Below, in pieces: positions 2,201 through 26,039 of a stretch of DNA of 63,103 bases. Source of the stretch: a virus (lineage: Duplodnaviria > Heunggongvirae > Uroviricota > Caudoviricetes); IMG/VR virus record IMGVR_UViG_3300023202_000102, positions 130,700 through 193,802 of that record. The stretch is one strand, 5' to 3'. The notes under the pieces are model-generated. The model saw nothing but the letters and a program-made list of their open reading frames with translations. It did no database searches and was not told the DNA's origin. Both the position numbers and the translations under genes were made by a program. Positions within the stretch are counted from its first letter, which is position 1; each line of letters opens with the position of its first letter.

Positions 2201-4150
2201 ATGGATATCAACAATGAAAAGACCAGAGCAGAACAGCTCGTTGAACAGAATAGACAGATACGTTCTCGCTCTGATGAAATTATTGATAAGAGAGCTTCTT
2301 CGGGAGGTATACCGGAAGTGTCTAATCGTATGGCGCGATCTGTTACTGATCAACGCCGAGAGCTGATGGAACGCCAGCTTGAAAGAGGAGAGTTTAGAGA
2401 GCAGGGTTCGTCTGGTTTCAATGGTGGTTCTTCTGATCCAACTAAGATTCACATGAGACAAACTCAAGCGGGTGTAGTCGCGTCCAACTCCAAGGGTCTT
2501 TACAAGATGGCCTCAGGGGGTGGTGGAGTTGCATCCGGCCACTCTGGCGGCTGGCGTGGCTCTAACGATTCATCAAGACAGATTCCAGAAGTGTATTCAC
2601 CTCTCTGGTTGAATTCGAACCTGAATCTTCCGAGGGATAGAGCAACCATTAATGCATGGTCTCGTTCTTTCTTTGCATTGAATCCTATCGTGCATAATGC
2701 TGTAACACTTCACAGTACGTATCCAATCGCAAAACTTAATATCAAGTCAAAGAATCCAAAGGTTGAGAAGTTCTTCAACCAGATGATGGAAGAAATTGAT
2801 TTGATGAACATGTGCGTTCTCATAGCTCAGGAGTACTGGATTCTCGGAGAAGCATTTGTTTATGCCGAGCTAGATGAGTCTAAAGGATCTTGGTCAAGGC
2901 TTATGATTCTTAACCCAGATTATGTGAACGTACAGCGTTCTGTCATTGCGGCAGAGCCTATTATCTCTCTACGTCCAGATGAGAATCTAAGACGAGTAGT
3001 CTTTGGTAATCAGCCATCTGATTTGCAACAGCGTAAGCAACTTGACCCATCTATCATTGAGCACGTTCGTAGGAATGAAAATATTCCATTGAACAATTTC
3101 TATGTCTCTCACATTGCGCGAAGGATTTCACCCTATGAAATTCGCGGAACGGGTCTGATTGTATCTTGTTTCCGCGCTCTCATGCTGTGGGATAAGTATA
3201 GAGAGTCTAACTATGCTCAGGCTGATAATATGGTTAACCCACTCACCTTGGTAAAGATTGGTGATAATGAATTCAGACCATCTCCTATTGATCTTGAGCA
3301 CTTCAGAAACACATTTGAAGAAGCTCAGTACGATAAGGATTTCAAGATCTTTACTCATAATGCGGTTAATGTTGAGCGTATTGGTTATGGCCAGGGTATT
3401 CATGATACATCTAATGATGTTCAGCAGCTTATCAAAGAGATCTACATTGGTCTTATGGTACCTTCTGTTATCATGGATGGCTCTGATACCACGTATGCTA
3501 CAGGTTCTGTTGCCCTTGATGTTCTTCGTCAGAGGTATATGCAGTTCCGTCAATACATGACCTCTTGGCTGAAGAACCGTATCTTTGCTCCAATTGCTCA
3601 AATCAATGATTTTTATGAGTACGTTGATGGTGAGAAGACACTGATTGTACCAGAGGTAGATTGGAATCATATGTCTCTATTTGATATGGATTCTTATATT
3701 TCCAATATGGTTAACCTGTCTCAGGGTGAGGGAACTCAGAAACGCGTTTCTCTTCAGACAATGTACCGTTCACTTGGTCTGGAGTACGAGGAAGAACAAC
3801 GTAAGATTAAGTACGAGGATATTCAAAACGCCATCCGTGTACGTGAGATGACAGCGATGACTCGTCTTCCACTTCATGAGCTTCAGTCTCTTGGACCTGG
3901 TGATGAGATTCCAGAGATTGCTGATGAGCCAGTACCGGGTGAGTCTCCATACGAACAGCCTGGTCAGGACGCAGGCGGGGCCGGTGGTCCAGGCGGTGGC
4001 CCAGGAGCGCCAGGCGGCCCAACAATGCCAGGAGCACCTCCTCCAGGACCAATTGGAGGCGGTGGTCCAAAGCCTCCAGGCGGCGGTGGCCCACCAGGCG
4101 GCGGTGGTCTTGGTGGTCCTCCACCACCACCAGCAGCTGGTCCAATTTGA
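2201..4150 (+). CDS. Portal protein with Gly/Pro-rich C-terminal tail
   Basis: Immediately follows TerL. Portal-like motifs 'EYWILGEAF', 'LMILNPDYV', 'SPYEIRGTGL', 'IYIGLMVP'. RBS GGAG. Confidence 0.88.
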   Translation: MDINNEKTRAEQLVEQNRQIRSRSDEIIDKRASSGGIPEVSNRMARSVTDQRRELMERQLERGEFREQGSSGFNGGSSDPTKIHMRQTQAGVVASNSKGLYKMASGGGGVASGHSGGWRGSNDSSRQIPEVYSPLWLNSNLNLPRDRATINAWSRSFFALNPIVHNAVTLHSTYPIAKLNIKSKNPKVEKFFNQMMEEIDLMNMCVLIAQEYWILGEAFVYAELDESKGSWSRLMILNPDYVNVQRSVIAAEPIISLRPDENLRRVVFGNQPSDLQQRKQLDPSIIEHVRRNENIPLNNFYVSHIARRISPYEIRGTGLIVSCFRALMLWDKYRESNYAQADNMVNPLTLVKIGDNEFRPSPIDLEHFRNTFEEAQYDKDFKIFTHNAVNVERIGYGQGIHDTSNDVQQLIKEIYIGLMVPSVIMDGSDTTYATGSVALDVLRQRYMQFRQYMTSWLKNRIFAPIAQINDFYEYVDGEKTLIVPEVDWNHMSLFDMDSYISNMVNLSQGEGTQKRVSLQTMYRSLGLEYEEEQRKIKYEDIQNAIRVREMTAMTRLPLHELQSLGPGDEIPEIADEPVPGESPYEQPGQDAGGAGGPGGGPGAPGGPTMPGAPPPGPIGGGGPKPPGGGGPPGGGGLGGPPPPPAAGPI

Positions 4151-4195
4151 TAAGCTCAGCGCATATTTTGGCTTCATAAAGATAGCTGGAGGCAT

Positions 4196-5422
4196 ATGAC
4201 TGACTTTACAAAAGAGGCACAGAGCAGATCCGTTTGGAATAGGGTTACGGAATTCACTGATGTTGGTGAAAGGTTACGCCGTAGACGTAGCCCAGAGTAC
4301 GCAAAAATCATGGAGGAGTTGGTTAAGGCTGACAACCGCATGAGAGAAAAGGCAAAGCAGAACAAAAATAACATGCGTGATGCCCTGCATGATGCCCGCA
4401 TGGCTATGAAGAATCGTCAATACCCTCGGGTTATCTATCATGCTTGGCGGCTTCTCAACATTACAGATAATGTTGTTGCTGATATGTCCAAGCTGGAAAA
4501 AATCAGGGACAAGCAATTTGATAAGTTTTATGGCAAGAACCTTACACCAACTCAGAAGAAGAACCTTCATGAAGGATTGGTAGGACAGGCATCAACCCCA
4601 GCTCCAACAAAGCTTCTTACGGCCAGCACTCCAGACCCAGAGCTAATTACACAGGCTGGAATCATGCAATGGCTCAAAGAAGTTCTCCCAACTCAGCGTG
4701 AACTTCAAGGTGAGGTTCTTGATCGTATCTTCAAGAATAAAATTTCTAAGCAGCGTGAAGGTGCTAGAGATGTTCTGCGAGAAGCTGAAGGCATTTATAA
4801 AGGAATGACTGGGCTTTTCAGTAGGCTTGATGATGCTCGCACTGATTTCAACAAGTACATGGAGACGGTGTCTTCATGGAAAGAAGATTACAATGAATTT
4901 AAGACTACCCTTACCGCACTGTATAGAGAGCATTTTGATGAATTGATTCCAGAAGAGGTAAAGGCAGCTGATCCTGTTCAGGCACCAATCGAGGAGCCAG
5001 CACCTCAGGCCGAGACTGCGGGGGAAAGCACTCCCGAATCAGAGACAGTTGAAGTAACCGATGAGGAGCTTATGGAAGACTCTACACCACAGCCTCAAAC
5101 AGAAGCTGTACCAACAGTTCCTGAAACTACTCATCCGGAATCAGTGATGGAAGATCCTCATACACCTGACGATGCGGCGTATGGAGAAGAGGCACCTGAT
5201 ATTCCAATGGAACAAGAGGATACTGGTAACATAGCTGACTATGTTGTAGCAGAAAAATATACACTATCTCTTATCAGAAAGGCAGAGAAAGCCTTAGAAG
5301 AGGGTGATAAGGGAGTGGCCGTAGCGCTTCTAGCTAAGGCTTCTGAGGTTGCTGATGATCATGGCGCTGAAAAAGTGAGCGCATCTTTACTTGAAGAAGC
5401 ATTGAGGATCTCCCAGGAATGA
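4196..5422 (+). CDS. Hypothetical helical/acidic protein, probable internal head protein
   Basis: RBS GGAGG. Motifs KEAQ, LTAS, TQAG; acidic Pro-rich linker; C-terminal 'ASEVADDHGAEKVS' hairpin motif. Confidence 0.55.
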   Translation: MTDFTKEAQSRSVWNRVTEFTDVGERLRRRRSPEYAKIMEELVKADNRMREKAKQNKNNMRDALHDARMAMKNRQYPRVIYHAWRLLNITDNVVADMSKLEKIRDKQFDKFYGKNLTPTQKKNLHEGLVGQASTPAPTKLLTASTPDPELITQAGIMQWLKEVLPTQRELQGEVLDRIFKNKISKQREGARDVLREAEGIYKGMTGLFSRLDDARTDFNKYMETVSSWKEDYNEFKTTLTALYREHFDELIPEEVKAADPVQAPIEEPAPQAETAGESTPESETVEVTDEELMEDSTPQPQTEAVPTVPETTHPESVMEDPHTPDDAAYGEEAPDIPMEQEDTGNIADYVVAEKYTLSLIRKAEKALEEGDKGVAVALLAKASEVADDHGAEKVSASLLEEALRISQE

Positions 5423-6903
5423 ACCGTGAAGATCAACAAATTCTAAGACACGCAGCACTTGAGCTTATGACCGAGCCAGACATGGTTCGCGTAGCTGGAG
5501 TGCTTCAGCGTGTCAAGAATTGGTGGAAAGCTAGGTTCAATACAGAGTTTGCAAAGAACCAGGAGATGGTTGATGGTGCTTATGATGGGATGAAGGGACC
5601 GCTTGGTGATCTTATCACTAGACTTAAGGAACTTGATGGTGCTTTCAAGTCTCAAGATCCAGAAGAAGTATCTCGAATTCTTTCTGACGTTCAGGCTGCA
5701 ATCAACAAAGTTGATTCAGGAGTTGATAATCTAAAGAAGAAGATTAACAAGTATGAAGATTCTGTAAGCAAAGCAGTATCTGATCGAGGCTATCAGGGTG
5801 AAGATACTGCTGGTGACGCTGAGCAGCGTGCCCAGTGGGAAATGTTACCTGAGCAGTTTAGGAATCAGATTAAGGTGAATGTTCCAATGAACATTCCGAT
5901 CATGCAGACAGATTGGTACGGACAAAACTATAGTACAGATAATGTTACGGTAGCCTCTCAGAGTAAGCCATTTATGAAGAAGGTTCTTGTTCGTGAACTT
6001 ACAAGACAGTTGCAAGAATACCTCACCGCATCAGATATTGAACAGTTAGTAGAGCTTGGGTTTGAGGGGTTTGTAGAAAACCTCAGACAAAGCATTCTGG
6101 CAGAGAACACTATTCTTGTAAGGGTTGAACAAAGCAAGCCCAGTAAAACAGTTACCAGAAGGACCATCAATCAGATGCAGCTAGAGGTAAATCCAGGGCC
6201 AATCATTCTTCCTGCAGGGCAGCTTAAGCTACCAGTAAATCCTGGTAGTGTTTTGCTTACAGATTTGGGAACCTCTGCGCGAGGAGCGAATCATGAGTTG
6301 GTAGTGTGGGCTGTGAAGCATGTGCGCCTTTCAACAGAGGCTTATAAAATACTCCGGCAAGCCATTCAGTATCGAGAAGAGCAAGATTCGCCCATTGAGG
6401 ATACAGAGCCCAAAGATGATGTGGAAGAGCAACCCGAAGAAACACAAGAGGAGAAGGAGGTTGAAGCCTCAGGGCCAATTACTTCTTTGATAAAGCGTGC
6501 CATTCTTCGGGATATTCTGCCAACCACTCATGCTGTGGTTAAGATCTCTGGCTCATCATTCCGTAATCTCAATGAGTGGTCTGATACAATGTACCGAGAA
6601 ATGTTTGGCACTGTTCTATCAAAAGCACTGCGTCAAGAGATAGATGCGGAAGCTGCTCTTCATTCCTCTGATGGCGGTGTTGAAGTACAAGTAAAAATTG
6701 CTGGTTCTAAGATGGCATCGTTACCTGCAATTTATGGCATTTCTATGGACGTTGCCGAACGCTTCAAAAAAGCAACCATGTATGGCGCTGAGGTTGAGGT
6801 TGATGAGGGCAAGTCTAAATTACAGTTGATTGAACCAGATGCGCTTGAGAGATCTAAGCGTCAAGTAACTATTGATTGTTGGAGCGAGCGTGGTGAACAC
6901 TAA
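5419..6903 (+). CDS. Hypothetical protein, probable internal head protein
   Basis: ATGA overlap with the previous gene. Motifs RVAG, VEAS, KRA; coiled-coil N-terminal half. Confidence 0.5.
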   Translation: MNREDQQILRHAALELMTEPDMVRVAGVLQRVKNWWKARFNTEFAKNQEMVDGAYDGMKGPLGDLITRLKELDGAFKSQDPEEVSRILSDVQAAINKVDSGVDNLKKKINKYEDSVSKAVSDRGYQGEDTAGDAEQRAQWEMLPEQFRNQIKVNVPMNIPIMQTDWYGQNYSTDNVTVASQSKPFMKKVLVRELTRQLQEYLTASDIEQLVELGFEGFVENLRQSILAENTILVRVEQSKPSKTVTRRTINQMQLEVNPGPIILPAGQLKLPVNPGSVLLTDLGTSARGANHELVVWAVKHVRLSTEAYKILRQAIQYREEQDSPIEDTEPKDDVEEQPEETQEEKEVEASGPITSLIKRAILRDILPTTHAVVKISGSSFRNLNEWSDTMYREMFGTVLSKALRQEIDAEAALHSSDGGVEVQVKIAGSKMASLPAIYGISMDVAERFKKATMYGAEVEVDEGKSKLQLIEPDALERSKRQVTIDCWSERGEH

Positions 6904-8644: not shown

Positions 8645-9280
8645 ATGGTTGAGAAAAAAGCCTACTCAGTACAGATGAATTTCAATGTACCTGACTCAGA
8701 GAAGCAGGTAGCAGAGAAGGCATCTGAACATTTTGAGCAATTATTGTCCCAGATGCAGGAGGCGTCTGAGTATTTAGACCTGATTTATGTACCTTTTCAG
8801 AAACGTCAGAACGTTGATATGGAGATGATTACAGATTATCGAAAGACGTTCCGTCAGTACAAAGACAGGGTAAAATCAAAGTTTTCTAAAATCATTCGCA
8901 GGGCTTATCAAGGGGTAGCGCTGATGAATGAGTTCGGTATTGATACGGCCACCGAAGAGCTAATGGATTCTTTTATTGGATCCGTAAGAGAATTAGAGAA
9001 GTATATTGATACATTTGTGTCAATATTTTCGAATCTAAATAGTCCGGAGTTTAGAAACCATCTCGTTTCAACAATTGAATCTATCAAAAAACAACTGAAT
9101 CAGATTAGACAATTGCTAAATGATAGGGTTTTAGAACACATAGACAGTAATATTTTGGCAAAGAATTGGGCCAACGATATTTCCGAGCATTCAGAAAACC
9201 CAATACAAGAACGGGTACCCTTGGTTGTTCAGCTTTTTAAGGAACGACAGAAAGCGTTACAAAGCGAACCAAAGGGCTGA
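8645..9280 (+). CDS. Helical-bundle hypothetical protein
   Basis: 211 aa, heptad-rich, N-terminal KKAY motif. Confidence 0.55.
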   Translation: MVEKKAYSVQMNFNVPDSEKQVAEKASEHFEQLLSQMQEASEYLDLIYVPFQKRQNVDMEMITDYRKTFRQYKDRVKSKFSKIIRRAYQGVALMNEFGIDTATEELMDSFIGSVRELEKYIDTFVSIFSNLNSPEFRNHLVSTIESIKKQLNQIRQLLNDRVLEHIDSNILAKNWANDISEHSENPIQERVPLVVQLFKERQKALQSEPKG

Positions 9281-9289: not shown

Positions 9290-9445
9290 ATGGGATTTGT
9301 TAAAAAAGGTGACGCAGAAATCATTGGTGTCGTAGATCCTGATAAGACTAAGGAAGACGACAAGAGGAAGGAAGCTTTGTCCGCAGCGATGAACGAGGCG
9401 ACGGAATCTAAGAAGGCTGATGATAAAAAGGCGAAGGAGAGCTAA
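9290..9445 (+). CDS. 51-aa charged protein (absent from the ORF track)
   Basis: RBS GAGGAG, ATG at 9290, MGFVKKGDAEIIGVVD...KAKES. Its TAA overlaps the protease ATG. Confidence 0.7.
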   Translation: MGFVKKGDAEIIGVVDPDKTKEDDKRKEALSAAMNEATESKKADDKKAKES

Positions 9446-12400
9446 TGGGTTTTTACAAGTTTGCAGATTCAGAACTTGCACAAGCTAACATTCAAGATTT
9501 TGATAAGTTAGCACATGATATTGATCTTGACATTGAAAAGCGCATGGCGAAGTTCGCCAATGACCTGAAGGTTATCGCACCACAGGCCAAAGACTTTTTG
9601 TACTTTACTTGCGTTATGATGCATGCCGCTGAGGCTGCTTGTTATAACCCTGATGGCACACCAAAGAAGACTGCCAGTGGAGAGGACGTGTCCGCCCGTT
9701 GGGATAAGCTTGGAGAAGGTGTTGTATGGACATGCAATGACTCAAGCATAATGCCTTACAGAAACAACAATAGGGACATCTTCCCTGAGGCCGAGCTGAA
9801 AGTAGCTTATAAAAACTGGGTTGGCCGTCCATTATGCCTCGATCATCAATCACAGAGTGTTGATAAGATCCGAGGCGTTATTGTTGATACCGTCTATGAC
9901 GACAAGCGCAAACGAGTGATTGCGCTTTGTGCTCTAGACCAAAAGAATTATCCGGACCTTGCTGATAAGGTCCGTACCGGCGTAGCAACGAATGTATCCA
10001 TGGGTACAGCAGTAGGAAAGGCTGTCTGCACTGAATCTGGATGCCATACTGTTGCACGAACCGAGCGTGATTTCTGCCAACACATGCGAGCTAAGTCTTG
10101 TTACGGCGAAATTAATATGGAGCTTTCTCCAATTGAGCTTTCCCTGGTTGTGTCGGGCGCTGACCCACAAGCTAAGGTAAAGCACATCATTGCAAGTGAT
10201 GTTGAGAAGGCCGCAGAAATGTTAACTGATTATCTGCAAATCAAAGAAGCGTCGGACACTGGTGTTTCTACGCAAGATTTGGAATCAGTAAAGAAAGACC
10301 TAGCCAATCTCACTGATAAAATCAGTGTCCTGACTAGTAAAGAAACGAATGACGCTACGGGAATGACAGCATCAAAGTCGATGGAATCGACTCCGCTGCC
10401 ATCTCATAACGTAACAGAAGTAAATGCTCCGAGTGCAATGCCTATGTATGCCTCTGAGCTACAGCGGGCAGTGCTTGGGGCTCAAACCAAAATTGCCAGC
10501 CTACAGGAGAATTTATCTAGACTTTCTAATGAGGAACCAACCATGACGAATAAGAAAACAGCATACTTCCAAGGTACAGAAGAGCCAAAGCCAGGGCAGC
10601 AGCAGTACCCTGTTGATCCAGCAAACGAGCGAGGCAGGCTTATGGATAAGAATTTACATGGGCCAGCTCCATTCCCTAACACAGGGGATGTGGAAGGTCT
10701 GTATCCAGGAGACGAGGAGAAGAAGAGAGAACTTCTTCGTCTTGCTGATGAGAACGAGCGAGCAGAGTTCCGTAGGGTAGCTCTTGAGAAGGCAAAGGCT
10801 CAACTTTCTAAGAAGAGTTACTTCCAGGGCACAGAGGAGCCAAAAGACGGAGGTACTGCACAGTACCCAGTTGATCCTTTGAACGATAAGGCTCGCGAGG
10901 AAGATAAGACACTTGTTGGTGCACCTCCATTCCCAGGGGTTGGTGATATTGAAGGTCTTTACGGAGACGACATGAAGACCAAGGAGAAGCTTTCCCGTGC
11001 AGCTTTGAAGGCACGTTTCAAGAAGGCAACTGCTCCAGACGGTCGTGTTGATAAGGGTGCTTCTAAGTGGGTTGTTTTTGCTAACGACCAGCCAATCATT
11101 GAGGCAACTGTAGATCAGATTTCCAGAGGTAACTCTGACTCTCTGTATGACGGAATTGCAACTGAGAGCTTCGGTCGTTCTATTCTTGACCGAATTCAGA
11201 GCCAAGGGTTCCAGGCAACCGCATCTGCGCTTCTTAAGAAGAAAGCTCAGGATCCAGCGGCTGCAGTAGCTCCTGCTCCCGTACCAGAGGCAGCACCTCC
11301 AGCAGATCTTGATCCACCAGCAGAGGTTCCAGACGAAGCCGGTGATCCAGCTGAGGTTGTAGCTGACCTTCAGGCTCTTAATGATGAGTTGGCTGAGAAG
11401 CTTTCTGATCTTGAGGGTAAGGTTTCTGGACCAGTTGCTGATGATGCAGAGGGTCTTGGAGATGTTCCACCAGCTGGCGACGATGAGTTCGCACCACCAG
11501 CGACAGGAGCAGCACCAGCACCTAAGAGTGCTGCACAGCTTCAGGGTATGCGTAAGCGTGTTAACGGAATGCTCCAAGAGGGTATCCGTGAGACCGTTGC
11601 ATCTCTCAAGAAGCACCTGAAAGAGATTTCTGCTGCAAAGGGCGTTTACGCTAACTACACAGCAATGAACGAGAAGCAGCGAGACTATCTCAACGGTCTA
11701 ACAATTGACGCCGTGAAGGATGCTCGCGCTGTACTTGCAGACACAAACAAGCTAATGGAAGCAGTTGTTAAGTACGCTTACGGCACTGCAGAGCTTGAGA
11801 AGAGGGCAGCAGCTGAGGCTAAGCTCCAGAAGAAGGCATCACCAGAGACTGTTGATTCCCTTCTCAGCGAGATTGACTTTGACGGTGACCCATCTCAGAA
11901 GGCTCTTTCTGCAGTTGAAGATGCCCTTAGGGCAGCCGAAGCAGAGATTACTACTGCAGACACAGCTAACACTGATTTCACCGTTACTCAAGACGGTGAC
12001 CAGGTTGGAACACTTAACACTGACACTGGTACAATTGAACTAAATTCACAAGCAGGAGCAAAATTGGATACAAAAGCATCTCGTGCTGAAGCTCGCGTTA
12101 AGCTTGCCCAGAAGGGTTTGCTTGGATTCAATGAGCTTTCCCAGCAAGCACACCCAGGCGGATCTGCAGATGCAGTTTCTGCCGCTAACCTGGACGTAAA
12201 GCCAACTGCACCAGATGCAGCGTTCCACGTCTACAAGGATCTCAAGACCAAGATGGAGAACCTTGCTAACATGCCACCTCGCGTTCGTAAGCAGGCTGAG
12301 CGTATCCAGGAGCTTGTCTCCGAGGGTAAGCTTGACCCATCGCGAGTTGACGAGCTGACCTCCCACGGTGTTGACCAGGAAGCAGTGTCTTACTGGAAGT

Positions 12401-12804
12401 CATTCTATGGCGAAGCTAAGGACTCTGAGTCTAATGAGTTCGCATCTAAGCTTGTTGCAGAGCATACACAGGCTAAGCAGGCTCAGGAGATGGATGACTA
12501 CAAGGGCCGCGTCAAGAGAGCATACGACATGGCTCATCAGATGGTCGGTAAGGGAATGATTGAAGCTTCCCAGATTGAGTATCAGGTTGGTGAGATTATG
12601 AAGTACAACCAGGCTGGCTTCGATTCTGTGAAGCGCCTAATCGAGAAGCAGGCAGCTGTTAAGACCGCTTCCGTTCCTCAGGTAGGACTCCTCTCCTCTG
12701 GAGATGTTATCCTTCCTGCAGCCCAGCGGCCTACACAGGCCGGAGGAGCAGATATCAAGGGATTCTTTGATGCCTACTTCAACGAGAAGGGAATGAAGTT
12801 CTAA
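9445..12804 (+). CDS. Prohead (maturation) protease fused to a long scaffold region
   Basis: N-terminal HK97/assemblin-type protease motifs 'NNNRDIF', 'LCLDH' (His), 'NVSMG' (Ser), 'IELSLVVSGADP', with a Cys/His insert. Followed by about 850 aa of coiled-coil and low-complexity sequence. Confidence 0.85.
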   Translation: MGFYKFADSELAQANIQDFDKLAHDIDLDIEKRMAKFANDLKVIAPQAKDFLYFTCVMMHAAEAACYNPDGTPKKTASGEDVSARWDKLGEGVVWTCNDSSIMPYRNNNRDIFPEAELKVAYKNWVGRPLCLDHQSQSVDKIRGVIVDTVYDDKRKRVIALCALDQKNYPDLADKVRTGVATNVSMGTAVGKAVCTESGCHTVARTERDFCQHMRAKSCYGEINMELSPIELSLVVSGADPQAKVKHIIASDVEKAAEMLTDYLQIKEASDTGVSTQDLESVKKDLANLTDKISVLTSKETNDATGMTASKSMESTPLPSHNVTEVNAPSAMPMYASELQRAVLGAQTKIASLQENLSRLSNEEPTMTNKKTAYFQGTEEPKPGQQQYPVDPANERGRLMDKNLHGPAPFPNTGDVEGLYPGDEEKKRELLRLADENERAEFRRVALEKAKAQLSKKSYFQGTEEPKDGGTAQYPVDPLNDKAREEDKTLVGAPPFPGVGDIEGLYGDDMKTKEKLSRAALKARFKKATAPDGRVDKGASKWVVFANDQPIIEATVDQISRGNSDSLYDGIATESFGRSILDRIQSQGFQATASALLKKKAQDPAAAVAPAPVPEAAPPADLDPPAEVPDEAGDPAEVVADLQALNDELAEKLSDLEGKVSGPVADDAEGLGDVPPAGDDEFAPPATGAAPAPKSAAQLQGMRKRVNGMLQEGIRETVASLKKHLKEISAAKGVYANYTAMNEKQRDYLNGLTIDAVKDARAVLADTNKLMEAVVKYAYGTAELEKRAAAEAKLQKKASPETVDSLLSEIDFDGDPSQKALSAVEDALRAAEAEITTADTANTDFTVTQDGDQVGTLNTDTGTIELNSQAGAKLDTKASRAEARVKLAQKGLLGFNELSQQAHPGGSADAVSAANLDVKPTAPDAAFHVYKDLKTKMENLANMPPRVRKQAERIQELVSEGKLDPSRVDELTSHGVDQEAVSYWKSFYGEAKDSESNEFASKLVAEHTQAKQAQEMDDYKGRVKRAYDMAHQMVGKGMIEASQIEYQVGEIMKYNQAGFDSVKRLIEKQAAVKTASVPQVGLLSSGDVILPAAQRPTQAGGADIKGFFDAYFNEKGMKF
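10552..10972 (+). repeat. Two approximately 55-aa internal repeats in the protease-scaffold
   Basis: KKTAYFQGTEEPKPG-QQQYPVDP...PFPNTGDVEGLY versus KKSYFQGTEEPKDGGTAQYPVDP...PFPGVGDIEGLY. Confidence 0.9.
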
Positions 12805-12859: not shown

Positions 12860-14098
12860 ATGTCAAAGTTTGATATCGCAAATGAAATGAATTCGATCAT
12901 GGACGGTCCAAAGTTCCAGTCCGTGTTCACCAAGCCACTTACCAAGACTGCTGCCAAGAAATCTGATGATAAAGACAAGGCTAAGGCAGATAAGGAAAAG
13001 GAAATGGCAAAGAACGCTAAGGCTTGTGTAGCTGAAGCTAAAAAGATTATGAAGAAGCACAAGTGCAAAGGTACCGCCAAGGCAGAAGATGGCGGTTGCG
13101 TTGTTACTCTTAAGGGTGACAAGAAAGATTGCGCTGCTGCTAAAAAGGAAATAGCTGCATTCTGTAAGTCCAAGAAATGCAAGTGCAAGTGCACCGTAGA
13201 GAAGACTGCGTCTGACTACGAGATTTGTGTACGTGGCCTTGCAAAGATTTCTGAGCTGCTTGATAAGCAGGGCTTCGAAAAGGAAGCAACAGAAGCGCTC
13301 CTAACTCTTGATTCTTTGGTAACCCGCGCTGCTCCAACTGGAGAGCTTGGTTCTAATACATCCGGCGTTAACGATTGTGGTCCAAAGGGTTCCATGTCAG
13401 ACATGGGTTCTGCCAAGGATTCTGACGACAAGAAAGATGACGACAAGGATGACAAGAAGGATGACGATAAGGATGACAAGAAGGATGACGATAAGAAGGA
13501 TCTTCCTCCATTCATGAAGAAGAAGGACGACAAGGACGACAAGGACGACGACAAGAAGGATGACGACGAGTCTGATGCCAAGGGTCCTAAGAAGGATGAT
13601 GAGGACGACAAGAAGTCTGATAAGGAAGAGGACGACAAGGACGACAAGAAGGATGACGATAAGGATGAGAAGGATGATGACAAGGATAAGTCAGATGCTT
13701 CTGATCAGAACAACGCTGGATGGGAAGATGCTGGCGAAGGTGATCCAATGGACCCAACCCTTGATGTTCGCATCCCAGTAGGAAAGGGCGCAGATGACGA
13801 AGTAGCTTTCGATGATATGATCGCAGAGATTGAAGGTGAAGGAAATCCAGCCGGAGAAGGTCCTAATCTTTCTGAGCTAGCAGGCGAAGGTGAGGGAATG
13901 TTTGAGGATGAAGATCTAAGAGCACTCATGGACTCTATCGACCTTCCAGAGGAAGAGGTTGTTGATCCTCAGGACGATCCAGAAGAGGCTGCAATGGGAG
14001 TTGAGGAGGATGATCCTCTAGCCGCTCTTGAGGCTGCATCAAAGAAGTCTTCTCTTGAGAAGCTCGCTGGCGAACTAAAGAAAAACTTTCTTAAGTAA
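12860..14098 (+). CDS. Highly charged low-complexity protein, probable internal scaffold/core protein
   Basis: RBS GAGG. Lys/Cys-rich segment, Asp/Lys repeat tract, acidic tail; motifs KTAA, KTAS, KLAG and 'ISELLDKQGFEKEA'. Confidence 0.6.
   Translation: MSKFDIANEMNSIMDGPKFQSVFTKPLTKTAAKKSDDKDKAKADKEKEMAKNAKACVAEAKKIMKKHKCKGTAKAEDGGCVVTLKGDKKDCAAAKKEIAAFCKSKKCKCKCTVEKTASDYEICVRGLAKISELLDKQGFEKEATEALLTLDSLVTRAAPTGELGSNTSGVNDCGPKGSMSDMGSAKDSDDKKDDDKDDKKDDDKDDKKDDDKKDLPPFMKKKDDKDDKDDDKKDDDESDAKGPKKDDEDDKKSDKEEDDKDDKKDDDKDEKDDDKDKSDASDQNNAGWEDAGEGDPMDPTLDVRIPVGKGADDEVAFDDMIAEIEGEGNPAGEGPNLSELAGEGEGMFEDEDLRALMDSIDLPEEEVVDPQDDPEEAAMGVEEDDPLAALEAASKKSSLEKLAGELKKNFLK
13417..13695 (+). repeat. Coding low-complexity DDKKDDDK repeats
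   Basis: Imperfect tandem repeats of GAY/AAG codons, e.g. 'aaggatgacaagaaggatgacgat'. Confidence 0.85.
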
Positions 14099-14168: not shown

Positions 14169-14384
14169 ATGGACAAATTCGCAGCACAGATTGAGAGTGA
14201 GATGGCGCTCCTCATGAGCGGGGAACTCAAAAAAGATATTCAAACAGACGACGCCATGGCACTTCTTTCCAAGGCAAAAGACTTGCTTGAGTGTGCTGGT
14301 ATTGATTCATACTCATCCGAGATTGTTAGCATCATGAGAAAGACAGCCACTGAAGATGAGTCTGATATTGAGGTGTCTGTATGA
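14169..14384 (+). CDS. Small hypothetical internal head protein
   Basis: Motifs KFAA, KTAT and 'AKDLLECAG'. Confidence 0.6.
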   Translation: MDKFAAQIESEMALLMSGELKKDIQTDDAMALLSKAKDLLECAGIDSYSSEIVSIMRKTATEDESDIEVSV

Positions 14385-14759: not shown

Positions 14760-15209
14760 ATGAGTAGAGAAGCATTTGCAAAGAAAGCTGCCAAGCTTGC
14801 AGCTGTTGAGATTTATAAGGCCGCTAAGGATGCTCCAACTGTTAAGGTTGCAAGTGCTGGTGGCATTAAGGAAACATTTGATATTGAGGTTCTTGCCAAG
14901 AAGGCCGCCGTTGAAGCTTACAAGGCTATTATGAAGGCGGCTCAGCCAGTAGCCCCGGTAGCTCCAGACGCAATGAATGTTCAGGGTATGGCTATGAGGT
15001 TTGGAATGAGAAATCTTGCTGGATACCTTGGTCGTCAGGTGCAGGGAGAGGATGTATCCGGAGAAGCACAGTATGCACAGAAAGAGGTCCCAGGATTCCT
15101 TTCAGCATACCAGGCTCAGAAAACAGCTGACGGAACGGATCCTTCCGTTTTGGCTCAGCACCTAGAAGTTGTAAAGAAAGTTCTAAGAGACGCTGGTCTA
15201 CAAGCTTAA
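14760..15209 (+). CDS. Ala/Lys-rich hypothetical protein
   Basis: RBS GAGGA. Internal repeat 'AKKAA..AVE.YKA'; motifs KVAS, KAAQ. Confidence 0.6.
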   Translation: MSREAFAKKAAKLAAVEIYKAAKDAPTVKVASAGGIKETFDIEVLAKKAAVEAYKAIMKAAQPVAPVAPDAMNVQGMAMRFGMRNLAGYLGRQVQGEDVSGEAQYAQKEVPGFLSAYQAQKTADGTDPSVLAQHLEVVKKVLRDAGLQA

Positions 15210-15261: not shown

Positions 15262-15286
15262 GTTATATGACCTTAAGAGAGGCAAT

Positions 15287-15985: not shown

Positions 15986-16001
15986 AATTTTAAGGAATTT
16001 T

Positions 16002-16800: not shown

Positions 16801-18468
16801 ATGAGTATTGCCAAGTACAACAAGAACTTACATGCATCTGAAGTCTTTCGTGAGCTGGAACGACAAGCAGCAAAGAAGGGCTTCTTTAATCCAACAGAGG
16901 AGGAGCAAGTAACACTTGCCGCCCAAACTGTAGCGGAGAAGAAGGTTGCAATTGCAAGCGATGATCTTCAGGAAACCGAGGATCTGGTACTTGACGTTGC
17001 TATGCTAGCTACTGCTCTTCGTGACCGTGGCCTTACCAAGCAAGCAGATGAGATTGAGAATAATCTTGTGATGTTCAAGCAGGCAGAGAGTGCTTTGTAC
17101 AATGTTACTGAGGAAACCAATAAGGACTTCATTGACTTTGCGCATCGCGAAGGAGACTTCCAGGTAGTACCTGGTGACTATGGTGCGGTTGAGACTGTTG
17201 AGTCTGCAGCCGAAAAGATACTCGCAGTAGTAAGGAAAACCCCCACGGGAAAACTCCCTAAGGAAGCATCATTGGCCGGATTGGCTTCCTTAATCAAGGA
17301 GGCTGAATTGCCAGCGGCCAGTACTACTGGGGCCGGAAGCGGAAACGTTGAAACGCTCAAGGTAGATTATGATACTGTTAAGAAGTATTTGGATGAGCTT
17401 GCCAGACTATTTGTTATGGCAGGAGATGGAAAACTCACCTTCTCAATTCAAGATCCTCTTCATGGTAAGGGACATGCATCAGCTCTTTTCAACATGCTAA
17501 CCAATAATGGATATCAACCCCTTAACACTTATGGTGTTATGGCTAAGTCTCTTTTTGCTGGTGGTAATGAAAGTAAAAATACAATTGCCGCTAATATTAG
17601 AGCCAGAGGCAATGACTACCTTAGAAGTATATTGTCTGGACGTTATGTAATTGCCTCTAGAGAGGATGAGCTTTTAAAGATGGCAGACCCAAGAGCAACA
17701 TTTGCTCCTCATCTTATACAGCAAGATACAACACAGCAACAGGCAGCTCAAAGTGAGATGGCCAAGATTGAGCAACAGGCAGACGTAACCGCACAGAAAA
17801 TATGGAACGATTACGAAGCTGCAAAATCAGCCGCAATAGATGCTGTTAACAAAGCAAATACACAACTAGCCAGGTTGCAAGCGGATGCAAATCAAATTAA
17901 GCAACATCTTAGTACACTAAGCGATAGACCATTGCGAACAGCTCAAGATTACAGAGCTTTTTCCGCAGAGATTGCTCGCACTATTCCTCAGCTTCGTCAG
18001 AGAGCGGCGTGGCCTGTAAGAATTTTGAATGGTTTTGGGAAGCTTAATGAAGCAGCAGAGTTCAAAACAAATACGGATTCTCTTGATCAGGCAAACCGTC
18101 GTCTATCAGCAAAAGCTGAAGTGGCAGCTAAAGCAGCAGAAGATGACAAGCTTGATGAGGGTCGTGTTAGAGCAACTCTTGGTAGGCTCAAGTCTATTGT
18201 AAAGCAGCTTGAGGATGGCGTTAAGAACTACGGCATGAAGAATGTCCAGGGAACTATTGATGATGTTAACACATTCATCTCTGAGATTCAGAAGCGTTAC
18301 GGTTCTGGTAGCATTAGCTATCTTCTCGAAGGTTTGAAAAACTTTGGTGATTATAAAGACAAGGATGGTAATCCAAGTTATCAAGCACTGGACAATGATA
18401 CTATGGCTCTTCTTGAGTCTGTAAAGAAAGATATCGCTGCAGCCAAGAAGAAGGCTGAGGAGAAGTAA
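16801..18468 (+). CDS. Helical internal head / ejection-like protein
   Basis: RBS GAGG. LRDRG hairpin, AH module, several K-x-A motifs, coiled coils. Confidence 0.55.
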   Translation: MSIAKYNKNLHASEVFRELERQAAKKGFFNPTEEEQVTLAAQTVAEKKVAIASDDLQETEDLVLDVAMLATALRDRGLTKQADEIENNLVMFKQAESALYNVTEETNKDFIDFAHREGDFQVVPGDYGAVETVESAAEKILAVVRKTPTGKLPKEASLAGLASLIKEAELPAASTTGAGSGNVETLKVDYDTVKKYLDELARLFVMAGDGKLTFSIQDPLHGKGHASALFNMLTNNGYQPLNTYGVMAKSLFAGGNESKNTIAANIRARGNDYLRSILSGRYVIASREDELLKMADPRATFAPHLIQQDTTQQQAAQSEMAKIEQQADVTAQKIWNDYEAAKSAAIDAVNKANTQLARLQADANQIKQHLSTLSDRPLRTAQDYRAFSAEIARTIPQLRQRAAWPVRILNGFGKLNEAAEFKTNTDSLDQANRRLSAKAEVAAKAAEDDKLDEGRVRATLGRLKSIVKQLEDGVKNYGMKNVQGTIDDVNTFISEIQKRYGSGSISYLLEGLKNFGDYKDKDGNPSYQALDNDTMALLESVKKDIAAAKKKAEEK

Positions 18469-20353: not shown

Positions 20354-21457
20354 ATGAACGGTGAGATCCAATACATTGCAGACTCATTTCTTCTTGAAAG
20401 GGTATTCAAGATCCTTAACAACTCTGGTGAAGAGGGGTTGCAGAAGCACGCCTTTGATCTTGGATCTGTTCTAAGTGGTATTGGAAGTTCCATCAAGTCT
20501 TATGTTGGTGGTAAGGTAGCTGGAAAGGATGAAGGAGGCGTTGCTAGAACGGTAACTAACCTATTGGCTCCAGCTATGTTCTTTAGATTGCATCCGATTC
20601 TTGGAATGGCAGCAACGGCAGCTCAGCTTTTTGGTATTGATTTATATTCAATATTCCAAAAAATCGCTGGAGCTATCATGCCATCTGTAGAAAAGGGCGA
20701 ACCTGTTAGTTCCGATGTTGTTAATCAAGCAGCAATGGGAGCAGCGGGTAATACAGCTATGGCTTCTGATGATTTCTTAGCCCCCCTTCGTGCAATGGAA
20801 GAGTCTGGTGAGTTGAAAAAGATCGCTGTATCTTGGGGAAGACCTAGGGGAAACGCATGGTCTCGTCAAGAGTTCATACCCAAGGATAAGAGTCCTTTCG
20901 TTAGGATGTTCTCTTTTATGCGCCCACGTCAACGTGGAAGTATCTTGGTAGGGATTGTTGTATGGTTTGTTAAAACTATACTAATGTCTGCTGGGCTCTT
21001 AGCGGGTGTAGGAGCGGCTTCTTCAATGTTAGGCAAAAAGCCAACTGGAGTTAGTTCAAGTCCACAGCAGAGTCAACAGCAGCCAACAACCCCACAAGGT
21101 GGCGGGGGTGGTGCTGCCAGGACATCTCCTGGTGTTGACCAGCGTAATACTGGAGCTGGAGCCACGAATTATAAGCCCAATCCAAATGATATGTGGATAG
21201 AGAATCTTGGAGGTCAGCAGCCACATGAGCGTCTTTTACAGTGGACTGAAGAATCATATCCAGGACTTTACCAATATCAAGACATAATCTTAAGGACACC
21301 TGCCTTTTGGAATGCGGTATCTGCAATGACTAAAGGGTGGCCCACAGGACAGCAGCAACTAATAATTGAGAATCCTAACTTCAAGAGTAGGGATGATATT
21401 TTGAAACTGTTTGTTCCACAGGTGTTTGATCAAATTAATAGAGGAAATGTAGCATGA
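20354..21457 (+). CDS. Membrane-active internal/ejection-like protein
   Basis: ATG at 20354 after AGGAG. Hydrophobic segments 'LLAPAMFFRLHPILGMAATAAQLFGI' and 'ILVGIVVWFVKTILMSAGLLAGVGAA'; KHAF, KIAV. Confidence 0.55.
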   Translation: MNGEIQYIADSFLLERVFKILNNSGEEGLQKHAFDLGSVLSGIGSSIKSYVGGKVAGKDEGGVARTVTNLLAPAMFFRLHPILGMAATAAQLFGIDLYSIFQKIAGAIMPSVEKGEPVSSDVVNQAAMGAAGNTAMASDDFLAPLRAMEESGELKKIAVSWGRPRGNAWSRQEFIPKDKSPFVRMFSFMRPRQRGSILVGIVVWFVKTILMSAGLLAGVGAASSMLGKKPTGVSSSPQQSQQQPTTPQGGGGGAARTSPGVDQRNTGAGATNYKPNPNDMWIENLGGQQPHERLLQWTEESYPGLYQYQDIILRTPAFWNAVSAMTKGWPTGQQQLIIENPNFKSRDDILKLFVPQVFDQINRGNVA

Positions 21458-22719
21458 GTGATATTTGGGATGAGTTTGAAAAGATAGCTGTAGCTCAGGG
21501 ACTCGTAGTTGAGGCTGAGGAAGACGGCGGTCAGCGAAAGACCCCAGTTCGCTACGACTCTTTGTCTGATGATGCGGTACGTATGCTTTACAATGTAGAG
21601 CCAGAAAGCATCTTTAAGGAAAAGGACATCATTGAGGTGGCTCATCCAGAGACCGCCGTTGTCACAAGGACTTACGATGCCATGAACGCTGTAGTTGAGA
21701 ACGTTAACCAGCGTCAAGATATGATGGCGTACATTGCACAAAAGATGCCAAACGGTCATCTTACTTACAGGCGTTATGTTGCGGCAAAGCAAGAGCTTCT
21801 TAACTCTTTGATAAGAGCGGCGTTTACATTAGACAATCAGGATGACGAGAAGCTGATGGCTTTTGCTGACTCTTGTGCTGAGCGCTTGGAAAAAAAAAGT
21901 GAAAAAATCGTAAAAGAAGCGATTGCACCCTTAGCTGTCGGATTGATTGGTGGCGCTGCTGCTCTGTTAGGAGCTGGATGGTATGCGCTTTATGGAGCTG
22001 AAAGCGTTAAGAACGTGTATGTAAATGCTCAGGCTGTGCTTGAGGCATTGCGCCCATTGATGTCACAGCCTTATGCAAGAAAAATCTATAGTGAAATTAC
22101 AACACTAATGACAGAGGCTCGTAAGATTTATCCACTTTTTCCAGAGCTAAGAAAGATTCGTTCCATTGAGGACTCGGTAAATACAACTAAGGTGGTGGGA
22201 GATGCTCGGGCCAAGGCTATTGAGGCTCAAATTCAGGCATGGATTAAATTACTTGAATCTGCACAGATGAAGCTTCCTGTATGGGTGGCTGAAATTGAAG
22301 AGGCTGAAGACCTAAGAACTGATGAAGATACAGGCATATGGTCTAGACTGAAAAATATAGCCGACCCTCTCTATGATACAGCTTCTGAAAAATTAGTTGG
22401 TGCTTTACAAGGGCGATCTAATTGGCTTGGTGAAGGAACATCTGGTGGTTTACAAGACGCTCTAGCTAAGGATTATAGGATTGCACAATCTGCTCTTGCT
22501 GCGGGGCAACAGCAACAGCAAGAGATTCAAAGAGTTGTTCAAGAAGAGCAGATGCAACAGCTTGAGCAAACACAAACACAGCCAGAGCAAGATCTGTTTC
22601 CACAGTTTGAGCCCGTTCCGGCTCCTGCTCCATCTATGCCGGGGCAGGGTGGCGGCGTAGCTAGAAAGAACCCAGGAATCCAAGAGGGATTCGATCCAAC
22701 CGGCCCTACATGGAGGTGA
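21454..22719 (+). CDS. Internal/ejection-like protein with a transmembrane-like segment
   Basis: AHP module and hairpin motif, then KEA followed directly by IAPLAVGLIGGAAALLGAGWYALYG. Confidence 0.55.
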   Translation: MSDIWDEFEKIAVAQGLVVEAEEDGGQRKTPVRYDSLSDDAVRMLYNVEPESIFKEKDIIEVAHPETAVVTRTYDAMNAVVENVNQRQDMMAYIAQKMPNGHLTYRRYVAAKQELLNSLIRAAFTLDNQDDEKLMAFADSCAERLEKKSEKIVKEAIAPLAVGLIGGAAALLGAGWYALYGAESVKNVYVNAQAVLEALRPLMSQPYARKIYSEITTLMTEARKIYPLFPELRKIRSIEDSVNTTKVVGDARAKAIEAQIQAWIKLLESAQMKLPVWVAEIEEAEDLRTDEDTGIWSRLKNIADPLYDTASEKLVGALQGRSNWLGEGTSGGLQDALAKDYRIAQSALAAGQQQQQEIQRVVQEEQMQQLEQTQTQPEQDLFPQFEPVPAPAPSMPGQGGGVARKNPGIQEGFDPTGPTWR

Positions 22720-22722
22720 TCT

Positions 22723-24084: not shown

Positions 24085-25095
24085 ATGTCTTTGTTCGACA
24101 CTAAAGGTGAAATGAACGCCAGCTCTGTCAAGGACGCACTTAACACACTCGTTAGGTATGCATCTGTTCTTGAAGAGAACCAACCACACAACACCGCTCT
24201 CGCAGGTCAGCCACAGCTGAACGATGAGAAGCGTGACGAGCTTATTGCTCGCGCCATTATGACTCAGGAGGGCAAGCTTGCTCTCGCTCAGGCAATGGCT
24301 AACCCAATCCGCCGTAACCTCGATTACCAGGGAATTGCACGTCGTCTGCTCGTTGTAGACGCACTTCCACAGGGTGTCGATCCAAAGTACGAGCGCGATA
24401 TCGATGTTGCCGCAACCGTTGTTTCTTCTAACGGTACAGGCGGTGAGTCCCGTGTATTCGGTGACCGTATCGTAGTTCCAACCTTCGAGCTTTACTCTAA
24501 CCCAACCGTTAGAATCTCTGAGGTTCGGCGTCGTCGCTTCAACGTGATTGACCGTGCTGTGCAGAAGGCTCGTCAGGAGCTTATGGCACAGGAGGATGCA
24601 AACATCTTCGCTGCTGTTGACGCTGCATCTTCTGTTGAGAACGTTCTTCAGGACATCTCCGATGGTGGTCTCCTCAAGCGCGACCTCGTTGAGATCAAGG
24701 TTCAGATTGATCGTTGGGACCTTGTTACAACCAAGTTCTTCATGAACATCAATGAGTTCACCGACATCCTGAATTGGGGATCCGGTGGTGGCCAGGGACC
24801 AGGTGGTGGTGAAGTTGACCCAGTTACCCAGCGTGAGATTCTTCAGACAGGTCTTTACGCTCACATCTGGGGAGCAGACATCATGGTTTCCAAGATTGTT
24901 CCTCCAGGAACCGTCTACGGTGCAGCAGACCCAGAGTTCGTTGGTGTTATGCCTATCCGTCAGGACATCGAAGTTATCCCAGCTGATGAGCCAAAGCAGC
25001 TCAAGCTTGGATGGGTTGTCTCTGAGGAGATCGGAATTGGTATCGTGAACCCACGCGGTGTTGCAGCAGCTCGTAAGAGCGTTGTAGCTGGCTAA
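24085..25095 (+). CDS. Major capsid protein (HK97 fold)
   Basis: 336 aa with 'PIRRNLDYQGIARRLLVVD.LPQG', 'VVPTFEL.SNP', 'IWGADIMVSKIVP.GTVY', 'GWVVSEEIGIGIVNPRGV'. Strong codon bias, RBS AGGAG, followed by a terminator. Confidence 0.92.
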   Translation: MSLFDTKGEMNASSVKDALNTLVRYASVLEENQPHNTALAGQPQLNDEKRDELIARAIMTQEGKLALAQAMANPIRRNLDYQGIARRLLVVDALPQGVDPKYERDIDVAATVVSSNGTGGESRVFGDRIVVPTFELYSNPTVRISEVRRRRFNVIDRAVQKARQELMAQEDANIFAAVDAASSVENVLQDISDGGLLKRDLVEIKVQIDRWDLVTTKFFMNINEFTDILNWGSGGGQGPGGGEVDPVTQREILQTGLYAHIWGADIMVSKIVPPGTVYGAADPEFVGVMPIRQDIEVIPADEPKQLKLGWVVSEEIGIGIVNPRGVAAARKSVVAG

Positions 25096-25117: not shown

Positions 25118-25144
25118 AGGCTGCGAGAAATCGCAGCCTTTTTT
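25118..25144 (+). terminator. Rho-independent terminator after MCP
   Basis: AGGCTGCGA-GAAA-TCGCAGCCT followed by a T tract. Confidence 0.88.
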
Positions 25145-25217
25145 GTATGCATTCTACGGCATTGTTGTGTACCTCGTGCACGAGGTGCATTGTAATTAAT
25201 CAACAAAATGGTGAGTG

Positions 25218-26039
25218 ATGAAGCTACCTCTTGATGCCAAGATTTCAGTAATATCTAGAATAGCAAAGGACTTTGTAGATTGTGTCGAGAGCGAGTCTGT
25301 CCCAGCAGAGCTGACATACAGAACATTGTATGTTGATGGGGGTGTTGAGGAAACTCAGAAGGCCCGCATGGCTGCATTCGCGGAGTTGACTCCCAGTCCA
25401 ATAACAAAGTTTGCTTTTGACACCCGCCGAGTTGATCAAGAGGGTTCTCGTAATCCTCGAAAAAACTTACAATATTGGCACCGGTCTGATCAATTCATTG
25501 ATGAAGGTGATGAGAAAAGGCTCAAGACATTTGCTAAGCTAGCAAAGGTTTTGAACAAAATGAAGGACCGCCTCGGAACCTCTCCGGAATGGTTTGAGAG
25601 TTATTCACGACAGCTTTATGATAATGTCTTCAGAATTCTGAGGGTAAAAGAAGCTGACCTGGATATCTTTAGACCACAGATTTCTTATCTTGAGCAGCTA
25701 GTATTTGCTAGGTACAGACTATCTATGGAGAACTTGGAGAAGTACTCTGAGGAAAAGCTAGAAGAAAGACTCCTATCGAAAGATGAGGAGCTAATTGGAA
25801 GGTCTCTGTATCTTAAAGAGACACAAACAGAAGAGAGCGAGCTGGTTTCAAAATCTATGTCGAAAGAAGCGCCTCTTCAGACGGGAGGTCTCACTCAGGA
25901 GTCCATCGTCAATGCTATTTTTGGTGGACAATCTCTCCTGAAATCTGGAGATAAGAGCGTAGAGAGAACGATCACGATCACACTTAGGGATAACGTTATC
26001 GAGAAGGAAGCTGAAGAGAAAGACTCTGATAACGAATAA
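25218..26039 (+). CDS. Hypothetical protein
   Basis: About 273 aa, helical; motifs RIAK, KFAF, KLAK. Confidence 0.55.
   Translation: MKLPLDAKISVISRIAKDFVDCVESESVPAELTYRTLYVDGGVEETQKARMAAFAELTPSPITKFAFDTRRVDQEGSRNPRKNLQYWHRSDQFIDEGDEKRLKTFAKLAKVLNKMKDRLGTSPEWFESYSRQLYDNVFRILRVKEADLDIFRPQISYLEQLVFARYRLSMENLEKYSEEKLEERLLSKDEELIGRSLYLKETQTEESELVSKSMSKEAPLQTGGLTQESIVNAIFGGQSLLKSGDKSVERTITITLRDNVIEKEAEEKDSDNE

Follow-up and report, generated by a model that had tools for sequence, protein, structure and literature searches.

Head module of the contig

We analysed the window, a stretch of 63,103 nucleotides that forms the final 63 kb (positions 130,700 to 193,802) of the 193.8-kb IMG/VR viral contig IMGVR_UViG_3300023202_000102 (CheckV completeness 45%), for a short peptide motif that recurs in the proteins of its head module and is a candidate recognition signal for the prohead protease encoded there. 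The window opens with this module, in which the large terminase (TerL), the portal protein, the protease open reading frame (ORF) and the major capsid protein (MCP) are encoded in that order; the protease ORF (9445-12804) is placed between the portal and MCP genes, as in tailed-phage head modules.

24-2186, large terminase (TerL), start of the head module
2201..4150, + strand, portal protein gene, 649 amino acids (aa; phrog_16240, E 1.3e-53)
24085..25095, + strand, MCP gene, 336 aa (phrog_2522, E 1.9e-78)

The nearest cultivated relative is Bacillus phage G, with identities of 53% for the MCP and 32% for the protease domain. The MCP has 1923 homologues at E <= 1e-10 and falls in a very large environmental clade whose contigs reach 480 kb; the homologues listed were all at least 80% identical and added no divergent N-termini. 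Most ORFs between the portal and MCP genes lack a family match in PHROG and Pfam. ORF 7541-8611, between the portal and protease genes, encodes a tyrosine/dual-specificity phosphatase domain (PF03162, E 1.8e-10), and its product starts M-P-D-R-F-A-Q, with R-x-A present and no hydrophobic residue at -4.

Enrichment of a pentapeptide in head-module proteins

A sequence-only reading of this stretch had proposed that a pervasive K/R-x-A motif marks about 20 head proteins for the prohead protease, and had listed tetrapeptides at named genes; all of those that we checked are there. We counted motifs in a head set of 22 proteins (ORFs 2201-26039) and in the remaining 29 ORFs of the window (28 beyond 26039, plus TerL), taking expected counts from within-protein shuffles and, in a second test, from local shuffles of 10-50 aa. 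Bare K/R-x-A occurred 119 times in the head ORFs against 93.6 expected (z-score 2.95, ~1.3x) and 121 times against ~96 under local shuffles (z ~3), an excess driven by ORFs 9445, 14760, 16462 and 25215. The motif is therefore enriched as proposed, but it stands out only when a hydrophobic residue (Phi) is present at -4. This strict form, [LIMFV]-x-[KR]-x-A, was found 62 times against 22.4 expected (z 8.4), 48 times against 18.6 when the protease ORF was left out (z 7.0) and 64 times against ~24 under local shuffles (z 8.2-9.0). Elsewhere in the window it showed no enrichment (7 vs 19.2), a shortage in tail genes that probably reflects fold class and not avoidance, and in contig 1-116.8 kb it was found 87 times against 73.3. 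Phi-x-K-x-A ranked first among 400 Phi-x-a-x-b patterns in the head ORFs (46 vs 13.2, z 9.1). Reversed and shifted versions, and those with an acidic (Asp/Glu) or uncharged-polar (Gln/Asn/Ser/Thr) middle position, were at expectation in the head ORFs and poorly conserved, and Phi-x-[KR] without Ala showed no enrichment after the strict sites were removed. K/R-x-[GS], which had been offered as a variant, is depleted in the window (100 vs 127.6), although at the level of the protease family G and S do replace Ala in certain columns (see below).

These counts bear on the possibility that the pentapeptide has no dedicated function and simply reflects the amphipathic, Lys/Ala-rich helices of scaffold-like proteins, in which positions i and i+4 are hydrophobic and i+2 is polar. 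The head proteins do contain much Lys and Ala, predicted helices hold many of the sites, and helix periodicity contributes something because Phi-x-[KR]-x-L is enriched ~2x both inside and outside the head block. Lys/Ala content, which the sequence-only reading had itself named as a competing explanation, comes close to accounting for the bare motif, whereas the strict motif exceeds it and keeps a z of 8-9 when local composition is preserved. Helicity also leaves unexplained the failure of acidic and uncharged-polar middle positions, the N-terminal bias, the islands within indel-rich coil and the columns restricted to A, G or S that are described below, and we regard a mere helix by-product as very improbable.

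Strict sites were concentrated near protein starts. Seventeen had their Ala at or before residue 40, against 2.7 expected, and 12 of the 22 head proteins had at least one of these, where 2.5 would be expected and 1000 shuffles never gave more than 7; over the first 40 positions the density reached ~1.9 sites per 100 residues, compared with ~0.65-0.7 beyond them (~3x). Carriers of N-terminal sites elsewhere amounted to 21 of 148 genes in contig 1-116.8 kb and 2 of the 29 other window ORFs (Fisher tests of head proteins versus other contig genes, p 7e-5 and 3e-4). The position-aware enrichment of 2201-26039 over the rest that had been suggested as a check was thus borne out by the strict motif.

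A second over-represented pattern in 2201-26039, Phi-x-S-x-I (20 vs 6.0, z 5.7), overlaps the pentapeptide as S-L-I-[KR]-x-A in ORFs 5419, 16801 and 21454.

Conservation and positions of individual sites

In alignments of orthologues that were 25-70% identical, K/R-x-A sites were conserved better than 16 control patterns, and among 14 K/R-to-A spacings joint conservation peaked at K(+2)A, with or without the protease ORF. Mean joint conservation was 0.48 for strict sites and 0.17-0.34 for the controls. Ala was the most invariant position (0.86 overall, and 1.0 where Lys varies), and the non-Ala residues at conserved sites were mostly S and G. The sites stand as conserved islands within variable, indel-rich stretches, and retention of K-x-A in divergent orthologues, which the sequence-only reading had named as a check, was found across the identity range compared. 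Judged by these counts and alignments, the pentapeptide is a real, selected feature of head-module proteins. The main sites in the head set apart from those of the protease ORF are given below, numbered by the Ala residue, with an arrow at the bond after Ala.

2498..2512, + strand, portal site L-Y-K-M-A↓S (Ala 104), K-x-A in 86% of orthologues
4205..4219, + strand, ORF 4196 site F-T-K-E-A↓Q (Ala 8), K-x-A in 10/10 orthologues, local background identity 0.19
5440..5496, + strand, ORF 5419 sites I-L-R-H-A↓A (Ala 12) and M-V-R-V-A↓G (Ala 26), 100% and 89% of orthologues
8648..8662, + strand, ORF 8645 site V-E-K-K-A↓Y (Ala 6), 73% of orthologues
12860..14098, + strand, Lys/Asp-rich ORF of 412 aa, 7 strict sites, the first L-T-K-T-A↓A (Ala 31)
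14169..14384, + strand, small ORF of 71 aa, start M-D-K-F-A↓A
14760..15209, + strand, ORF of 149 aa, 6 strict sites, the first M-S-R-E-A↓F; K/R-x-A 12 vs 4.0 expected
16855..16869, + strand, ORF 16801 site L-E-R-Q-A↓A (Ala 23), 4/4 orthologues
20438..20452, + strand, ORF 20354 site L-Q-K-H-A↓F-D-L (Ala 33, from ATG 20354), 97% of 35 orthologues
20813..20827, + strand, ORF 20354 second site L-K-K-I-A↓V, K-x-A in 86% of orthologues, region identity 0.15
21475..21489, + strand, ORF 21454 site F-E-K-I-A↓V (Ala 12), 96% of 23 orthologues
24148..24162, + strand, MCP site L-V-R-Y-A↓S (Ala 26), within an N-terminal extension
25401..25415, + strand, ORF 25215 site I-T-K-F-A↓F-D-T-R-R (Ala 67), 44/44 orthologues

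The MCP site lies in an N-terminal extension of ~43 residues. The solved phage G capsid protein (gp27, PDB 6wkk) lacks this extension and aligns to the MCP from residue 44 onward only. Its [KR]-[YF]-A core was present in 80 of the 80 related loci listed and in every one of 63 different orthologue sequences that were scored, and the MCP of phage E3 carries L-G-R-F-A↓K near the corresponding place. The phage G portal protein also has the portal K-M-A-S in the corresponding alignment columns, and the phage E3 portal has M-P-R-V-A↓S. In ORF 25215 the site coincides exactly with the junction of a hypervariable N-terminus and an invariant segment (alignment A3: invariant K64, A66, F67 and D68), and in a model made with AlphaFold2 (AF2) it is located in an exposed coil of low predicted local distance difference test score (pLDDT) between helices. 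The Ala 33 site of ORF 20354 has indels on its flanks at a background identity of 0.25. No alignable orthologue of ORF 12860 was present among the relatives' loci compared, and a search for orthologues of ORF 14760 among relatives' loci found none.

Two of these genes have further features. ORF 12860 contains a long Lys/Asp low-complexity run (D-D-K-K-D-D-D-K-like repeats) and a Cys-rich N-terminal part. An ORF upstream of the window starts M-V-E-K-N-A-Y, resembling ORF 8645.

The strict motif is absent from ORFs 15260, 15966 and 23282, which belong to the class that the sequence-only reading termed DGY and considered close to mutually exclusive with K-x-A. They hold 0, 0 and 1 K-x-A, respectively, and the proposed exclusivity carries no statistical weight because these proteins are expected to have only ~1 each. 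ORF 15260 has a paralogue in ORF 15966 (blastp E 2e-7; window 15260-16403) and a weak resemblance to ORF 23282 (23282-23983; E 0.012); the latter lies directly upstream of the MCP gene, the position of the decoration gene gp26 in phage G.

The protease ORF and its scaffold-like extension

The protease ORF encodes 1119 aa, of which residues 106-217 match phrog_18299, 'head maturation protease' (E 1.1e-15, given for residues 115-217). A Pfam search of the ORF returned no family at E <= 0.01, the HK97 family included, and a sequence search of the PDB gave no match. An AF2 model of residues 1-300 (pLDDT 78.5) was aligned with VIA-align to T4 gp21 (5jbl; Z 8.7, 127 residues aligned, root-mean-square deviation 3.2) and to herpesvirus proteases (Z 6-8.4; varicella-zoster virus 8.4, pseudorabies virus 8.1), and the top 25 structural matches were all gp21 or herpesvirus proteases; Foldseek by itself gave a weak match (E 3.8e-3). 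Alignments of 9 and 18 sequences, in which identity falls to 44%, show no change at His134 or Ser185 (V-S-M-G), and both have equivalents in phage G gp19. According to the model, residues 1-250 have the T4 gp21/herpesvirus assemblin fold, with His134 and Ser185 as putative catalytic residues, in agreement with the earlier claim that the head gene set includes a protease of this type.

9445..10194, + strand, candidate prohead protease domain, residues 1-250 (PHROG match, AF2 fold, invariant His134/Ser185)
10195..12804, + strand, scaffold-like remainder, residues 251-1119; holds 11 strict sites out of 14 in the whole ORF
9544..9558, + strand, N-terminal site M-A-K-F-A↓N (Ala 38), F/K/A columns 84-86% of 113 homologues
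10549..10563, + strand, repeat 1 start K-K-T-A↓Y-F-Q-G (Ala 373); K 0.84; A 0.71, G 0.18, S 0.11; Y 0.92
10804..10818, + strand, repeat 2 start S-K-K-S↓Y-F-Q-G (residue 458), Ser in this ORF but Ala in 80% of homologues
11233..11247, + strand, site L-K-K-K-A↓Q (Ala 601), abutting a hypervariable Pro/Ala-rich linker; K 0.84, A 0.89
11794..11808, + strand, site L-E-K-R-A↓A (Ala 788), abutting a hypervariable acidic region; A 0.91, K 0.71
12283..12297, + strand, site V-R-K-Q-A↓E (Ala 951); V 0.83, K 0.60, A 0.90
12655..12669, + strand, site A-V-K-T-A↓S-V-P (Ala 1075); K 0.80, A 0.75, then S/G/A, P 0.82

The remaining ~870 residues consist of conserved blocks that alternate with hypervariable Pro/Ala-rich and acidic linkers, and include two tandem copies of a Y-F-Q-G-T-E-E-P ... 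P-F-P ... G-L-Y module (window 10558-11000). At the starts of the two copies (columns 373 and 458) only A, G or S occupies the place of Ala, and the Ala 1075 site precedes a conserved C-terminal tail of 44 residues. The family comprises 194 clusters at E <= 1e-30, mostly of 1100-1300 aa. Its 113 full-length homologues contain 12.0 strict sites per protein against 4.2 expected, with all 113 above expectation; in their C-terminal parts Phi-x-K-x-A (3.1x) and Phi-x-R-x-A (2.5x) were the top two of 400 patterns. K-x-A columns common to the family lie at residues 38, 373, 445, 458, 529, 601, 778, 788, 888, 951, 1024 and 1075. The placement at N-termini and domain boundaries described in the sequence-only reading was therefore confirmed, both in propeptide-like protein starts and at the conserved-to-hypervariable borders of this ORF.

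The distribution of sites also has to be weighed against an uncut docking or capsid-targeting short linear motif through which head proteins would attach to scaffold, protease or shell interior as the prohead is assembled. Sites at N-termini and linear-motif-like conservation amid a variable, disordered context would suit such a motif, the initial sequence-only reading separately listed shared helical motifs as a possible targeting signal, and in T4 the capsid-targeting sequence coincides with the cut site (PMC5694885). Docking fails to explain, however, why about a dozen copies sit within the protease-scaffold protein exactly at domain/linker borders and repeat starts, or why sites are found at residues 1-5 of small proteins; moreover, targeting and cleavage can coexist. 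We consider docking without cleavage improbable. Both it and the helix by-product are less likely than cleavage because neither explains the linker-border sites of the scaffold together with the N-terminal bias.

I-I-A250↓S was considered as a site of release of the protease and set aside: A250 is present in 99% of the family, but there is no basic residue, and it may end the last strand.

Several other features of this family were observed. Cys195, Cys200, Cys211 and His213 (window 10027-10086) cluster soon after Ser185 and are common to phage G gp19; from its sequence, the cluster at residues 195-214 looks like a small zinc-binding knuckle. Some relatives (L091:9577-14055 and L092) have an insertion of ~370 residues in the protease domain, just before a conserved D-I-F-P-E block; the insertion looks like an intein, and many homologues of ~1500 aa align to the query in two separate stretches, as expected from such an insertion. 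The Y-F-Q-G module also occurs as a free-standing ORF of 112 aa upstream of the terminase gene (contig 126739-127077), which starts M-K-R-K-A-Y-F-Q-G-T.

The motif in phage G and outside the head block

The enrichment was replicated in phage G, where the first 30 kb, from the terminase to past the MCP gene, contained 33 strict sites against 15.3 expected (z 4.7), compared with 25 against 20.9 in a 49-kb replication/tail control region. Its protease gp19, with a protease domain 32% identical to that of ORF 9445, has 7 strict sites against 1.0 expected, and several small proteins of the phage G head region carry the motif at most 12 residues from the start. Candidate sites in phage G include Ala45 and Ala52 of gp19, Ala12 of gp20, Ala9 of gp13 and Ala8 of gp38. 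In gp19, L-V-K-T-A↓A is found shortly before a conserved K-x-I-A-P-x-x-D-F-L-Y block, the same block that follows M-A-K-F-A↓N (Ala 38) in ORF 9445. The two phages thus have in common the motif-enriched protease and head region and the portal K-M-A-S; unlike the protein analysed here, gp19 has 300 aa and no long extension, and the phage G capsid protein lacks a motif-bearing N-terminal extension.

Two ORFs beyond the head block supply the sole N-terminal sites among the 29 non-head ORFs of the window.

47213..48835, + strand, candidate extra substrate outside the head block, start M-A-K-L-L-E-K-L-A↓E (Ala 9)
53567-55144, ORF with M-T-R-I-A↓N (Ala 5)

The product of ORF 47213 is Ala/Lys-rich and has a Pro-rich linker. 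Beyond the window, directly before the terminase gene (contig 116800-130700), a further group of ORFs was enriched, with 33 strict sites against 13.7 expected and 10 N-terminal sites against 1.3; it includes an ORF of 1334 aa. When its ORFs were compared with PHROG families, only a tRNA nucleotidyltransferase was matched. The set of head proteins probably extends past the window.

Comparison with known prohead proteases

The system resembles those of T4 gp21, phiKZ gp175 and SPN3US gp245 in that one head-encoded serine protease is associated with a short motif across many head proteins; gp21 has the same fold, and the proteases of these phages remove N-terminal propeptides and process themselves, the same logic as we propose here. 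The SPN3US protease cuts after A-x-E (PMC10052503, PMC5694885), whereas Ala and not Glu terminates the motif described here, which has its basic residue two positions earlier, and the protease is fused to an 870-residue extension. The Glu codes of T4 and phiKZ showed no real enrichment or N-terminal bias in the head proteins ([LI]-x-E, 93 vs 75.3 overall, with 6 vs 8.5 up to residue 40; [AGS]-x-E, 131 vs 139.5).

In herpesvirus UL26, an N-terminal protease is followed by an R site after the protease and by an M site that frees a capsid-binding C-terminus (PMC12474303). The protein encoded by ORF 9445-12804 shares with it the predicted assemblin fold, the N-terminal placement of the protease in a long scaffold-like protein, and candidate sites both beyond the protease domain and ~44 residues short of the C-terminus; the scaffold and MCP-binding functions suggested by this layout are putative here. 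The consensus cleavage site of assemblin is (V/L/I)-x-A↓S. As in assemblin, the position that varies least is occupied by a small residue, Ala; unlike in assemblin, the motif has a basic residue two positions before Ala and no preference for Ser after it, sequence identity is 9-16%, and the host is a bacterium. The assemblin consensus [VLI]-x-A-S was itself unenriched in the head proteins (13 vs 8.9, z 1.4).

HK97 gp4 cuts the capsid protein at Lys103↓Ser104. It belongs to the same structural clan, and its cut, made beside a Lys, detaches an N-terminal part of the capsid protein; in HK97, unlike here, the scaffold (delta domain) is fused to the capsid protein and not to the protease.

The HK97 precedent is relevant to which bond would be cut, since the pentapeptide could equally be a cleavage signal with the cut after Lys/Arg. 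The three fixed positions fit P3, P1 and P2' (hydrophobic, Lys/Arg and Ala) as well as P5, P3 and P1; T4 gp21, the best structural match, recognizes [LI]-x-E with the same 'hydrophobic-x-P1' layout; a cut after Lys/Arg would parallel the Lys↓Ser cut of HK97; and K and R are interchangeable, as at a trypsin-like P1. HK97-type [KR]-S was unenriched in the head proteins (51 vs 60.7), a result with which a cut after the Lys/Arg of the motif is still compatible. Against this bond stand the invariance of Ala even where Lys varies, the restriction of the repeat-start columns to A, G and S, the lack of enrichment of Phi-x-[KR] without Ala and of [KR]-S, and the unusual stringency that would be needed at P2'. 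We therefore favour a cut after Ala, because Ala is the most invariant residue, is swapped mainly for Ser or Gly, and is needed for the enrichment of Phi-x-K/R, and we think a cut after Lys/Arg unlikely.

The pentapeptide as a probable cleavage signal

Taken together, the pentapeptide is probably the recognition motif of the phage's own prohead protease, contained in the N-terminal ~250 residues of the protein encoded by ORF 9445-12804. On the best reading of the sequences, it would mark ~10-13 well-supported candidate substrates, together with many self-cleavage sites in the scaffold part; only this number of proteins, not the ~20 proposed at the outset, has a conserved or N-terminal site. 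Cleavage itself, the bond cut and the functions of the scaffold and tail are what we infer from this pattern. Inside the assembled prohead, the protease would cut at or beside Ala, in our favoured version after it (P5 hydrophobic, P3 basic, P1 Ala). Short N-terminal propeptides would be removed from the portal protein, the MCP and ~8-10 internal or accessory head proteins, and the protease would also take apart the scaffold-like extension of 870 residues that it carries, cutting it at about a dozen sites, including the two K-x-A↓Y-F-Q-G repeat starts, the two sites that abut linkers and the one that would free the conserved C-terminal tail.

Several points weigh against this interpretation. 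A literature search found no cleavage sites reported for phage G, phage E3, cluster C mycobacteriophages or this protease family in general, and mature N-termini are not known from this phage or any relative. The residue after Ala shows no clear preference, and some conserved K-x-A look structural, such as residue 888 of the protease ORF, where Ala is replaced by V, L or I, and residue 259 of ORF 18468, where Lys is not retained. Other genes show a weak baseline of the motif (1.2x overall, 1.7x at N-termini), a tRNA nucleotidyltransferase carries an N-terminal site too, and Phi-x-[KR]-x-L is itself mildly enriched, as noted above. The hydrophobic position was, furthermore, chosen post hoc from the data and afterwards replicated in other sets.

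To our knowledge, cleavage codes are available for few prohead proteases only, those of T4, the phiKZ/SPN3US group, HK97 and herpesviruses. The system described here is most likely a prohead-protease cleavage code of new specificity that is common to a large megaphage clade. It is also possible, if rather doubtful, that the proteases of this clade and of phage G cut after Ala as assemblin does, within a UL26-like protease-scaffold polyprotein with a release-type site behind the protease domain and a maturation-type site ahead of a capsid-binding tail, so that a small-residue P1 and the fused architecture would be shared across bacterial and animal viruses of the HK97 fold, and that the Y-F-Q-G modules of ~55-85 residues, once cut free, persist as internal head peptides. 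If the cleavage code is as we propose, the mature head proteome would become predictable for a very large and mostly uncultivated clade of megaphages, packaged or ejected proteins that lack any other annotation would be flagged, and the protease would represent a phage counterpart of the Ala-directed herpesvirus protease. Phage G is cultivable and its virions have already been analysed by mass spectrometry, so that the code is directly testable there.

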